From: Podarcis melisellensis
Taxonomy: Eukaryota
Strand: one strand, 5' to 3'
Assembly (NCBI GenBank): GCA_964234715.1
Contig: OZ174277.1
Length of the DNA: 64,000 bases
Shown: one piece after another, positions 11,250-61,413 of the stretch
Position numbering within the stretch: the first letter of the stretch is position 1
Layout of the letters: every line of letters starts with the position of its first letter
Translations under genes and position numbers: made by a program
Notes under the pieces: model-generated
Databases searched by the model: none
Seen by the model: only the letters and a program-made list of their open reading frames with translations
Told to the model about the DNA's origin: nothing

Positions 11250-11367
11250 GGATATGGAGTTGATGAGCACGCAGCCCTACAGGCTCGATGGGAAGAGGCA
11301 TCCAAAGAAACAATCAAAAGAACAACAAAGCCATGCCCTAAGTGTCATGTTCCAGTGGAAAAGGATG
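11250..11367 (+). CDS. PRKN: Parkin coding exon (human exon 11; REP element and start of RING2)
   Basis: [42 protein letters not shown] acceptor and G|GTAAGT donor. 118 nt, the same as human exon 11. Confidence 0.97.
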
Positions 11368-11624
11368 GTAAGTTTATTGATCAGTATTCAATACTGATCA
11401 ATACAGCTCGGGGGAGGAACGTCAGGCCCAGGGGTGAAATGTTGCACAAAAGCCTTTCTATTAGGCCCTTGGTCTCTCCCTGGACCCTCTGTCCCAAGCC
11501 ACACCCTCAAGCATAGTAAATTCTAAATGTTATATGCCCATTATTTTTATTTTTTGTCATCCATCCACTTTTGCCTATGAACTCATTTGCAATTTCTTAC
11601 TTTTGGTTTTGGTTTTTCTTCTAG

Positions 11625-17800: not shown

Positions 17801-18268
17801 TTAAAAAATATTTATTACAAATCCCAGGCAATTTGCTTACTTGCTTGCTTCCTTGCTTGCTTGTCTGGGTGCAAAAACAGGAAATGAGGACAAAATAAAT
17901 ATATTCTAGAAGCTCATCTGCTATAAACACTTTTTATTTCTACAAGTGCATCGCCATGACAATAGCACCATGACAATTAAAGGCTGGGAAAGGGAGCACA
18001 AAACTAGACAGGCATGAAAACCTCCTAATTAAATTATAACTTGTGATTAATATAGTAGGACTTAAAACAATTACTAATGATTGATATAGGAGACTTAAAA
18101 GAGCATAACAAGCACGTTCCGTAGATGTGATCAACTATGCATTTAAGAACAGGTCAAAGTACAATGTTTTCCTGAACTCAATGTGAGCTGAACATTCTAA
18201 GGTGATGAGTGAATGTCTTAGTATTAGAATGGTTTGTGCAGTATCATGTACAGAAGCAAAGCTTAGAA

Positions 18269-18329
18269 GCAAGACTTCCCATCAGGCCACAGTCATGTGC
18301 AAGACTTCCCATCAAGCCACAGTCATGTG
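18269..18329. repeat. 2 x 30-bp tandem repeat in U3 (enhancer-like)
   Basis: GCAAGACTTCCCATCARGCCACAGTCATGT, two copies with one mismatch. Confidence 0.9.
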
Positions 18330-18350
18330 TAGAATCACAGCATCCCATCA

Positions 18351-18371
18351 TCTCCCCTTTCTTTTTTATTT
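18351..18371 (-). promoter_or_regulatory. Polypurine tract preceding the 3' LTR
   Basis: AAATAAAAAAGAAAGGGGAGA immediately followed by TG (start of U3 at 18350). Confidence 0.85.
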
Positions 18372-18374
18372 AAT

Positions 18375-18533
18375 GGTGAGTGGGACAAAAATACATCGGG
18401 ATACGTGGTTTGCCAGCGCATACCTGAAATAATTCAGCCCACCGATGTTGTTGTGTGAGTTCAGGGTGAATGGGACAAAAAATACCTCGGGATACGTGGT
18501 TTGCCAGCGCATGCCCGAAATAATTCTGCCCAC
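18375..18533 (-). repeat. Two ~68-bp direct repeats (18375-18442, 18465-18533) between env stop and PPT; each is self-complementary
   Basis: Read directly: GTGGGCWGAATTATTTCRGGYATGCGCTGGCAAACCACGTATCCCGAKGTATTTTT(T)GTCCCAYTCACC, two copies. Confidence 0.92.
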
Positions 18534-18547
18534 ATCTCCCCTAACGT

Positions 18548-20025
18548 TTACTGTTGGTGCTGCCATTTCGCAAAGTAGGCAGCAATGATTTTATTGGGTG
18601 GCTGAGGAGGAGAAAAACACTGAGACCAAAGGCGTATGAGACCAGGGATGCATTGGATGAAGCAACATAGCAAAATTAATATACATACTATGACAATAGT
18701 ATATTGAAAAAGATTGCGAAGCCAATTCAAATTTGGCAACCAACCAGTGAGCCACTGGGTAAACGAATCCCAGAGGCCAGGAAGTCCAAAGTCCTGTTGA
18801 TGTGATATGTGAGATTTTGCAAATGAGAAATTTGTTTTTGAATAGCTTTAGAATTGTCAGTAATATTAAAACAGCACATGTCATCCACTTGTTCACAGCC
18901 ATAATGATGAAGCATCAGCAAATAATCAATTGCAGCGCGATTCTGTAAGAGTCCATGTTGGAGTTCACTCTGCTCTTTATTCAAAAGGTGAAGGGCTTGT
19001 GAGGTAAAGTTCAGAGCTTTTGCTGCGGAGCAAGCTAAAGCATTAATATTCCTGCTATTCCGTACAGCCAATCCAGGGACTCCTAAGAGAGAGACAGCTA
19101 GAGAAATATATTCAGATCTACTAGGGAGAGAAACAGAATCATCACAATCATTAGTCAATTCTACAGAGCGTCGATATTGAGAGCGGAATAAATGATGCTT
19201 CTTGGGTAAAATGATGGACAAACAGCTTAAGCAACAAGGTGTGCAATGGCTGATGTTTGCCGGAATATAATTGAATGTATAGCCTGGGCACGACCAGAAC
19301 CAGCCTTCAGGCAGCTCTGTATATTTATATATATATGAAATATATACATAATTAGAGCAATTAAAATTGTTATCCTTGCCCATTTTCACACAGTTGGTTT
19401 TTGTCCATTTGACCATACGGGCACAAGTGGCATTAGAGGAGGCCACGTATGGGGTTAACAAATCAATTGCCAGAGATGGGCGTCGGCGCAGTTGGTTACC
19501 CCAGTTATGGTAACCGGAATAACCAAGAGTGCGAAGAGAATCATTTTGGGGTAGGGATGAATAAAACTAGGTATCATTTTGCATATCAAAAGGGTCATGG
19601 CAAACAGGGATAAGGCAAGAACCAAGGATTTGACCTATAGATACCTGTTGAGTTAGGCAAAAAGAAGAAACATTGAGGGTTTTTGCAAAAGATTCCCACA
19701 CATTTATTGGTGTGGAATCACCGATGTTAGGAGCGGAAGCAGAGAGGGGCAAAAACAAAGCACTGAAAATGAGCACTATCATGGAATTTATGTTGAGGCA
19801 AGAAATGAGGCACAGAAGCAAATTATCAGGGGTTGCTTCCAGGTGCTGTTCCTTTCTAAACTGTTCAGCTTGAAGTGAGAGTGATTTTATTTGGCCCCAC
19901 GTCACTGGTTCATTACGATTTCCCCGCTTGCGAGTCCTGGGGGGGCCGGGCGTCGCATCCTGGGCGATCTGCAGTTGACCGTCGAACTGTGGTATCGGAT
20001 TCTGCAGGGCCTGTTGCCATGCCAT
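18548..20025 (-). pseudogene. env: Retroviral env (~492 codons reconstructed): Rec/Rem-like signal peptide plus alpharetrovirus-type SU/TM; premature TAG at 19567-19569 and 1-nt frameshift at ~18797
   Basis: ORFs 19567-20088 and 18727-19461 are in frame across one TAG; ORF 18548-18739 supplies the TM anchor and tail. Motifs: NVWESFAKTLNVSSFCL, LPEGWFWSC, QYRR|SV, Cys-flanked internal fusion peptide, LQNRAAIDYLL (18916-18948), CEQVDDMCC (18871-18897), CCFIQCIP. Confidence 0.93.
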
Positions 20026-20110
20026 GATAGAGGCGGATGCAGCGTGCGGGAACCCAGCGAGCACCCTGTGGAGTAGAAACTGCAGCATAACCCTTCCCCC
20101 AGGTAATCAC
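19913..20110 (-). pseudogene. pol: Retroviral integrase C-terminal remnant (beta/alpha class II type)
   Basis: VITWGKGYAAVSTPQGARWVPARCIR matches the class II IN motif (W)GRGYACV...WVPxRxIR. It contains the env splice acceptor TTTCTACTCCACAG (AG at 20067-20066). Confidence 0.85.
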
Positions 20111-20123
20111 GTTGGGGTCACCA
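20106..20123 (-). promoter_or_regulatory. Primer-binding site complementary to tRNA-Trp
   Basis: TGGTGACCCCAACGTGAT, 17/18 identical to the ASLV tRNA-Trp PBS TGGTGACCCCGACGTGAT, 4 nt after a ...CCTTTCA LTR end. Confidence 0.88.
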
Positions 20124-20679
20124 GATTTGAAAGGATAACCTTGCCTCCACCCACTTCCTTCCTTGCTTAAGATGTGTACCCTTATAAAACTAACACTACT
20201 ACTTAGATTAACTATTTACGATAATCTAAATCTGAGTACATAGATAATTCTAGCCTAGCTTAATTAACCTGATTGTGCTCAGAAAGGTAGGGGAAGGAAA
20301 AATACTAAAGGACAGCTGGAGTGAGGAAGGAAGAGGCAGGTCTGTATGGAGAAGTGTTGTAAAAGAAATAAAATGTAAACATTTCAATTTTTTATTTTAT
20401 TTGAAAAACACATCCACCTTGAAAGATAAAAGATACACTGGATGTTTGCTTCACATCACTCCTGAGAGTCCACCATTAGCACTCTGGTCATTTGCCCTTT
20501 CAGATGGCTCAACTGATAAAGTGTATAGGTTCTGAAATTAATGTAAACTATTATCTTGTAATCATTACTGGTTTGGTTTTACAGTTTTAAAGTAACACAT
20601 TACCATGCAATACCAAAAGAGACATATGTTTTAATATAATTTTATACAATTATTTATTAATTCCATCCTAACCCCTTTC

Positions 20680-58884: not shown

Positions 58885-61276
58885 GTGAGCTGTGGTTTGC
58901 AACCTTAAGGCTGCCTCTAGAAATAATATTTTGAGGAAATGGGTCCTTTTTCCATTCTGCCTTTAACTAATTTTCTTGAGCATTTGTTCATCAATTAGAT
59001 GTTTGCACGCGCACTGAGGTCTGATGGGGTGGGGGAGGAATTTTGTGTACCGGTTGCCCCCAGTAGACCACTCTAGAGGCAGTGCTGGAATTCAGCTGAG
59101 TGACATTTTGCTGTGCTATCACTGAAACTTAATCTTATTTCTCTCTCTCTCTCTGAATTAATATTGCTTTTTAAAGTCTGCAGAACTCAACTGAAAAGTA
59201 CCCGTGAGTAAAGACACTGAAGAACTTCTCATTTCTCTTCCAGTCAGGGAGCAAAATGGAAAGAAATGAACTGAAGCTAGCAAGTTTTCAAATGCACTTA
59301 CTTTTCCAACGATGAACTGGGCTAATCTTGTCTTTTTCTTTCCTTTCTGTGATGGTAAATAACCAATATATCAAACGTTTGGGCACATGGCTTCAGCTCA
59401 GGGTCTCCACTTGACGTTTCAATCCTGTCTGATAGTTAAGCTTCATATTTGCAAAAGAAAAGTAAGCTTTTAGAAAGGGTGATATGGGGAAAACGAATGT
59501 CAGGATTGTGCCTATTCTTTCGGAATTGAAGAGTCTCCGAATGGCTGAGTCGGTCCGAAGACTGTTAGCAGATGCTCATTATCAGATTCTGAATTCTTGC
59601 AATTTTGTATTGAGCTATATTAGCCAGTACCCTCCAAGTCTGCAGCATATAGTGAACAGGCTTCCTCATTCTGCACCACACCAGAATATTTGCTCATGAA
59701 ACTTGCTTCAGTTTTGTCAAACCAGAGGTTTCAGGACTGAAGAGCACCATGTCTTTCTATGCTAATGTGTTCAGGTAAGCCACCCAGCATAATTCAAAAG
59801 CATCCTGTGTGAAATCAGAGAATGTTTTCTCTTGCCTGTAATGAATTCTCTTTTTCAAGCTACCGTTCCCCCCTCTTACATTCTCTTGGTGTCCTGATCT
59901 AATCAGCTTATACAATATAAGAAAATAGTTGGTATTCTGTATTAAATCATAGTAGTAGTACTGCAACGTCTCGGGTATGACTGAGATGACCCTGAAGTTG
60001 TTGTTGTTGTTGCTGTTGTTGTTATATATTTCTTTATACCCCACCTTTTCCCCTAAAGGGACTTCTTGTTGGCAAGTGCTTGCTAGCCAGTCAGTGTATG
60101 AAGACCATGCTCTGTTTTGTGCTTGTGTTCAGATATGACTCATATGGCTCATCGATTAAACCCAGAGTTCATCTAGATTCAAGAGCTCTTGTTAACCGTA
60201 CCAGTCAGATTGCGTAGCTCGATTGGATTAACAGATTCAAAAACCAAGTGTAATGTAATATTTTTGGACTAGGAGAATACAGTGAGGAAGGGTTCGCCCT
60301 GTCTTTAACCATATAGTCTGGGTTCTAGAAGGCAGCAATGTAAATTATATATTTCATATAGTTTACACACAACTGAAACAAATGGCATCAGAGCAGCCCA
60401 AATTTTGTGCCAACTGCATACATTAAGCAAGACTATTTGGTTGGTTTGCAGTCCTCACTTTGCTCATAAAGTGTGTGGTTAGAGAACTCTGCAGCAAACA
60501 GGAACATTGGCTACTGGAAATCCATTCTCAAGCCTATCTTGCAATTGTAGCACATAGAAGCTTCCTTTTTTTTTAAGGGGGGGGAGAAACACCTGATACC
60601 AGTTGTTGGGTCTTACACAGAATATACACAGCCTTACTTTTAATTGCAGGTGCATGGATTGCGTGCTTTCTTCCTTACAAAAGCCTTCAAAATTGGCCCC
60701 AGTATTAACAGTTAGGACATAGAAAAATCAGAGGGGCAGGTAGATGTCGCTGCCTAAGACTGTGCAGAGGAACAGGGCGGAGAGACTTGCTGCCAGTCAG
60801 ATATGTGGCTGGGCACTATTTCTCCCCTGCCAGGATTGCACTGGTAGTGGTCATGGCAAATCATCTGCTGCAAGCAGAAAATGCAGCTTTGCACATTGTC
60901 TGCTCAGCCCACGATTGAATAACTAGGCAGTGTGGTGTCCTGACACATGTGCTTACGCAAAGCAATTTGGAGGATCCATTCAGTTAGCACGGGTGCGGTC
61001 TTATCTGGACTAAAAGGGGAAAGAACATTCAGGCAGACCAGTGAATCAACCCCATGTAGTATAAGGGGACTCCTTTTATATGGAGTGCTGTTTTGGTGGC
61101 ACGATTGTCATAATGACTGCAATAATTATAACCAAAGGTTTCACCTTTTTTCCCCCTTTTGAGATGGAAGCATCTCTTGTTATTTGTTGATTTTTAATCT
61201 TTTTATGTTTTTATTCAAGAATGCATCCACAGTGGTGTTTTCTTTTATTTTTTCAGGCTCCCAACAGTATTATGGT

Positions 61277-61413
61277 GCAGGATAGCTCAGCTGGTAGAGC
61301 ATGAGACTCTTAATCTCAGGCTGAAGGGTTCGAGCCCTATGCTGGGCAAAAATATTTCTGCATTTGCAGAGAGACCCTCATGGTCCCTTCCAACTTTACA
61401 AGTCTGTGATTCT
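61277..61413 (+). mobile_element. tRNA-derived SINE with CR1-like tail (Squam3-like)
   Basis: GATAGCTCAGCTGGTAGAGCATGAGACTCTTAATCTCAGG...GGTTCGAGCCC head; GGTCCCTTCCAACT tail. Confidence 0.75.

Follow-up and report, generated by a model that had tools for sequence, protein, structure and literature searches.

A tandem pair of viral-sense hairpins between env and the main polypurine tract of a Podarcis class II endogenous retrovirus: a candidate RNA export or expression element

Structured RNA elements that occupy matching positions near the 3' end of the genome are described for several retroviruses, namely the CTE of MPMV, the DR of ASLV and the JREE of JSRV (accessible parts of PMC12789967, PMC3856414, PMC7551171 and PMC3185594). 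The CTE of MPMV/SRV is portrayed as a single stem-loop of 150-175 nt with two internal loops, and the motif AAGACA is named for the gamma-CTE of MLV (both from the accessible part of PMC7551171). In SERV-K/MER11, an LTR-derived insert behind an upstream polypurine tract (PPT) is reported to serve as a CTE that works without Rec, and the accessible text of the same paper calls it unclear whether that upstream PPT is active (Williams et al. 2024, PMC11379458).

A locus of similar layout is described here from a 64,000-nt stretch of Podarcis melisellensis DNA (GenBank assembly GCA_964234715.1, contig OZ174277.1; the window), in which a preliminary description had placed tandem long hairpins between env and the PPT, at a CTE/DR-type position. 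The hairpins do sit there, on the minus strand, which is the viral sense. The succession of env end, upstream PPT, LTR-like non-coding insert, main PPT and LTR, in a virus encoding a Rec-like signal peptide, resembles that of SERV-K/MER11; however, the insert of the latter measures about 750 nt, derives from HML-8 LTRs and is a proven CTE, whereas the present one measures about 185 nt, consists of two simple hairpins of candidate function and has no donor among the loci searched. Two insertions begin at the upstream PPT here, in contrast to the unclear activity of its counterpart. With the ASLV DR the block shares the 3' UTR position, the retention of at least one copy, and an ASLV-like TM and tRNA-Trp primer-binding site (PBS) in the host virus, but the DR, as described, is 115 nt long and flanks src, whereas the present units are 65 nt, adjacent to each other and linked to a beta-like pol. 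The MPMV/SRV CTE is likewise a structured RNA with twofold repetition between env and the PPT; here, however, two separate hairpins carry only single-base bulges and no large internal loops were seen in them, while AAGACA, which is common to the loops of the MPMV CTE, was not found on either strand within 18350-18550. Membership in the MPMV CTE family was rejected on these absences. The RcRE of HERV-K, the RmRE of MMTV and the JREE/RejRE of JSRV are similar in lying at the env end or U3 start of viruses with a basic and leucine-rich env signal peptide, yet the RcRE (433 nt) and RmRE are long, multi-stem structures, and the peptide found here scores below the Pfam cut-off. Hairpins at the retroviral 3' end or in U3 are also known as the ALV-J E (XSR) element, mentioned in the accessible part of PMC2931761, and as the foamy-virus U3 miRNA hairpins, from which the present units differ in that neither seeds nor a terminator-like T-run are conserved. 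Judged by these comparisons, the block is set apart from the MPMV CTE and is a putative variant among the known 3' export-type elements.

The host element belongs to a class II family that combines a beta-like pol, a Rec/Rem-like signal peptide, an ASLV-like TM and a tRNA-Trp PBS. On the minus strand, the window copy runs from the PBS (20106..20123), which forms its 5' end and is fused to a C-terminal integrase remnant (19913..20105), through env (18548..20025; a long beta-type signal peptide followed by ASLV-like SU/TM) and the hairpins to the main PPT (PPT2, 18351..18367) and the adjoining 3' LTR (17976..18350), which starts with TG at 18350, contains a 30-bp tandem repeat (18269-18329) and is cut at 17976, where other copies continue. 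A stop at 19567-19569 and, near 18800, a frame break interrupt the env of the window copy. The copy is devoid of a 5' LTR and of a visible target-site duplication (TSD), and at 20106-20125 it begins with the 2-nt spacer and PBS, joined to the integrase end by a short microhomology, a configuration that fits a non-integrase capture of a reverse transcript before the second strand transfer. ASLV TM structures are the nearest match of the TM (E 5e-14), the PBS in family copies shows complementarity to the host tRNA-Trp, and the pol of one family copy is closest to PDB chains 7sr6 and 7usf/3jca, which we take to be the HERV-K reverse transcriptase and the MMTV integrase, respectively. An assignment to the genus Alpharetrovirus by pol was rejected, the integrase matching 7usf/3jca at E 1e-64 versus 3e-42 for RSV-type chains. 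The Rec-like peptide postulated in the preliminary description stands in so far as a signal peptide with a basic motif and a W-x-x-I-x-x-L stretch (19873..19938, minus strand), which we read as Rec/Rem/Rej-like and as a possible trans partner of the hairpins, is present, and both motifs are kept in near-complete copies; its match to Pfam HERV-K_REC (E 6e-4, 20.2 bits), however, falls below the cut-off of 27.5, and that of a full-length relative reaches 12.6 bits. Database searches with the peptide brought up a single relative, a Podarcis lilfordi env of 491 aa (88% identity); the ESM Atlas returned nothing at 0.9 or more for the signal peptide, and a viral-contig search gave no relative. Elsewhere in the window, an IBR-domain exon, presumably resembling parkin, lies at about 11310-11370 on the plus strand (Pfam IBR_2, E 1e-4), and the ERV, antisense to and downstream of it, probably sits in an intron; ARAGORN called a tRNA-Lys(CTT) gene at 61275-61348 (plus strand). 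Alpha-like envelopes are described as widespread among reptiles in the accessible part of PMC13568524.

The hairpins correspond to a direct repeat (18375-18442 and 18465-18533; 91% identity, 91-nt spacing) with units of 65-68 nt. Unit 1, upstream in the viral sense (18467..18533, minus strand), starts at the TG after the upstream PPT and forms a bulged stem of about 27 bp with a CAAA loop; the structure drawn beforehand for this unit is both its MFE and its centroid fold. Unit 2 (18376..18442, minus strand) is weakened by stem mismatches, and the A/C-rich, unstructured spacer between the two (18443..18466) is missing from subfamilies B, C and D. Folding of both strands against shuffled sequences, a comparison set in advance, gave -31.3 kcal/mol (z -5.97) for unit 1 and -22.8 kcal/mol (z -3.20) for unit 2 on the minus strand, with 0 of 200 shuffles equal in either case, versus -17.0 (z -1.35) and -16.7 (z -1.18) on the plus strand, and the whole 386-nt region behaved likewise (z -3.79 on minus, +0.41 on plus). 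As the unit boundaries had been chosen, 361 sliding 67-nt windows over the element served as a control; unit 1 had the lowest energy among them and the second-best z (-5.2), next to a hairpin internal to env (-5.5). That hairpin, of 16 bp in the SU region (19492-19526, minus strand; z about -5.5), is also sense-biased, and most near-complete copies retain its base, but no compensatory changes were seen in it, and it is missing from the short deleted subfamily. With DNA parameters, folding of the repeat was weak and almost strand-neutral. In other copies the env frame reaches a stop at 18550-18548 and hairpin 1 starts 14 nt later, so that the hairpin block occupies nearly the whole 3' UTR of about 200 nt. 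An Rfam scan left the hairpins unmatched, its two matches in the region (E 6.8 and 8.1) lying elsewhere.

Conservation of the block was surveyed in 171 units from 89 clusters among the loci fetched (76 pairs, 10 singles and 3 triples; a few singles are insertion-split pairs and one cluster is a 5' LTR). Almost half of the clusters (45 of 89) lie on a single 39-Mb contig (G000:C19), a load that would be expected of a W-like, repeat-accumulating chromosome. Among 61 loci picked by env similarity, five had no env tail and two a truncated one; at least one unit was kept in all 54 with an intact env end (two units in 51, one in 3), which is modest evidence because most of these loci stem from one young burst. 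The block is also kept in young, internally deleted 3-kb copies, and the two PPTs form a short direct repeat between which a deletion would be possible, yet the units persist. For covariation, 64 of 66 distinct units were aligned, two with truncated 3' arms being dropped. Of the 1088 cells that make up the 17-bp upper stem, 94.1% are paired, compared with 31-49% in slid registers, and RNAalifold recovers the same stem; the paired fraction and the covariation score were reached by 0 of 500 shuffles, a shuffle that ignores relatedness, while 12 of 500 reached the observed number of stem pairs with two-sided change (6 of 17). G-U cells outnumber A-C cells 130 to 17 over all rows. In eight representatives of four subfamilies, 130 of 136 cells are paired (15 G-U, 0 A-C), with one mismatch in each of six units, and four distinct compensatory pairs occur (G-C/A-U, G-U/U-A, G-C/C-G and C-G/U-A), while the loop and the loop-proximal stem are nearly invariant across units. 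Of five units from other subfamilies, four fold better in the viral sense; the exception is unit 1 of locus L117, which slightly favours the antisense fold (-24.0 vs -21.5). Contigs of four other organisms also cover the block and were excluded from covariation because their changes are unphased, and a loop-motif count (247 vs 4) was discarded as its reversed control, which contains CpG, is unfair. Three more distant env groups of the same genome showed no such hairpin; these alpha-type groups (L093-L101; TM 34-53% identical) have short env-to-PPT spacers. Strand asymmetry and covariation thus bear out the RNA-level structure proposed in the preliminary description, and the pattern, with about four independent compensatory events, lends moderate support to selection on the stem as an RNA structure.

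The purine-rich motif that had been remarked on in passing near the repeats was located at 18535-18543 (PPT1, minus strand; TG at 18534-18533) and proved to be more than a side feature, as the 5' limit of the block lies there and LTRs have started from it. It is eroded in the window copy and a full A-rich tract in loci L102 and L103, and it adjoins the env stop like the single PPT of the env groups that have no hairpin; hairpin 1 starts exactly at its cleavage site. The usual LTR start is 18350, after PPT2, as in ten LTR pairs found among 19 ten-kb loci, eight of them with clear 6-bp TSDs; with solo and 5' LTRs also starting at PPT2, a routine location of the hairpins inside the LTR was rejected. 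Insertions that start at the upstream PPT are an added feature that is directly visible. A solo LTR of about 780 nt (L117:1505-2288, on G000:C14) begins at the PPT1 TG, contains both hairpins and PPT2, and is flanked on both sides by CAGAGT, a perfect 6-bp TSD. A 3.6-kb deleted provirus (L180, G000:C16:10278914-10282515) has two LTRs of about 750 nt, 99.7% identical and both starting at PPT1; it shows no 6-bp TSD, its junctions sharing four letters only. Because these two insertions begin at its cleavage site, PPT1 likely primed plus strands. Such priming would have been infrequent, at some 1 in 100 within the young subfamily, since 88 exact PPT1-hairpin junctions and 185 LTR-start matches stand against one long 5' LTR, the only one of three matches not due to chance for a pattern blind to flanks in which G stands two bases ahead of the start. 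Among young copies, about 99% have the block outside the 5' LTR. Long LTRs need caution as evidence for PPT1, because template switching can also make them: in L247 (L247:2169-2981) and L249 the 5' LTR opens with 35 nt of U3, jumps from there to the env end and then runs on through the hairpins and a full LTR, while the 3' end is normal; this 5' LTR likely arose by a plus-strand template switch. Another copy (L246:8349-9097) has the env end, PPT1, one hairpin and the LTR, without hairpin 2 and PPT2. A young non-autonomous subfamily of about 3 kb (L051, L053, L062 and relatives; LTR pairs 99.5-99.8% identical, 6-bp TSDs) has LTRs that open with TA, not TG. A search for a donor LTR family found none among all 34 non-proviral matches, out of 51, to an exact 17-mer pattern, the only pattern to span the whole genome, or among 16 other loci.

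Taken together, the fold, its viral-sense bias, the compensatory changes, the retention of at least one unit and the LTRs starting at PPT1 make it on balance probable that the hairpins act as an export or expression element. That they do so constitutively, by binding a host factor that aids cytoplasmic accumulation or translation of unspliced RNA in the manner of the CTE or the ASLV DR, is a reasonable but tentative proposal. The likely ancestor of the hairpins is the beginning of an earlier terminal repeat: the block would represent the 5' end of a U3 that was either older or came from a donor. It may have been stranded upstream when the main LTR boundary shifted to a second PPT and U3 start, and template switching could then have given rise to between one and three units. 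A putative protein-binding site would be formed by the invariant loop-proximal stem, the CA(A/C)A loop and the two single-base bulges. Against this reading stand the lack of an Rfam match, of AAGACA and of large internal loops, the limit of about four independent compensatory events alongside several lineage-level mismatches, the antisense preference of L117 unit 1, the three distant env groups without the hairpin and the failure of the donor search; moreover, PPT-adjacent sequence is kept by linkage, and the 54 loci, mostly of one young burst, are not independent.

It is also conceivable, if rather unlikely, that the Rec/Rem/Rej-like signal peptide of the virus itself has its response element in the hairpins and acts through them by CRM1-type export or translation enhancement. 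The long signal peptide with its conserved basic and W-x-x-I-x-x-L motifs and its HERV-K_REC match at E 6e-4 would agree with this, as would a pol closest to 7sr6 and 7usf/3jca and the location of known response elements at the env end or U3, the block resembling an old U3 start; the scores of 20.2 bits (cut-off 27.5) and, for the full-length relative, 12.6 bits argue against it, as does the position of the block on the env side of the junction while the peptide is beta-type like pol. The comparable SERV-K/MER11 insert, moreover, is reported to work without Rec, though a rec-like transcript persists (accessible part of PMC11379458). A role in packaging, in keeping the RNA stable or in reverse transcription, where pausing might for instance shape the use of the two PPTs, appears unlikely: the ASLV DR reportedly affects packaging, stability and assembly (accessible part of PMC3856414), non-autonomous copies retain the block and hairpin 1 exactly abuts PPT1, but the loop is not self-complementary, and spliced env RNA, which carries the hairpins too, would make them a poor site for a genome-specific signal.

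Decidedly unlikely is a DNA-level origin of the pattern, either as a U3 enhancer repeat or as a functionless relic of the old U3 whose pairing is the by-product of a quasi-palindrome. The block does start at a PPT/att boundary, lies inside U3 in L117 and L180, and has a copy number of one to three that is typical of enhancer repeats; its invariant core also resembles, we assume, an NF1 half-site and enhancer-core motifs, and for a relic, copying from arm to arm could mimic compensation. However, G-U pairs persist at the lineage level where A-C is zero, DNA folding is weak and near strand-neutral, one two-sided change is accompanied by a neighbouring mismatch, which speaks against arm copying, and the block's place outside the 5' LTR in most young copies is at odds with an enhancer. 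Most improbable is a viral pri-miRNA comparable to the ALV-J E/XSR hairpin or the foamy-virus U3 miRNA cluster. The units are of pre-miRNA size with a T-run in the 3' arm, yet the would-be seeds of both arms are substituted while the loop end is invariant, and the T-run is broken in the L071-type, L117 unit 1 and L102 unit 2 rows; neither a conserved mature arm or seed nor a terminator at the base was found in the unit alignment. Canonical Drosha substrates have longer stems than the present one of about 27 bp with its 4-nt loop. The E/XSR hairpin is reported to yield a miRNA (PMC3911700), and the foamy miRNAs to map to U3 and to have Pol III terminators (PMC3993851), in the accessible parts of these sources.

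If the hairpins are an export or expression element, they might even constitute a new structural class, a short repeated hairpin unlike the CTE, DR and RcRE that a newly gained second PPT displaced from U3, in a reptile virus joining a Rec/Rem-like signal peptide to an alpha-type envelope; this is doubtful, although worth stating. Both PPTs would then be usable, and the element therefore fossilised inside as well as outside the LTR, so that a switch of export control between U3 and the UTR would be naturally recorded. No account of the element was found in the literature covered, which left out most subscription papers. The export elements known so far come from a small number of mammalian and avian retroviruses. 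The compact 65-nt candidate described here, which covaries in nature and belongs to a reptile lineage, is easily testable and would show whether such elements repeatedly arise from stranded pieces of U3. The insertions starting at PPT1 provide fossil evidence on the question, left unanswered for SERV-K/MER11, of priming by a second PPT.
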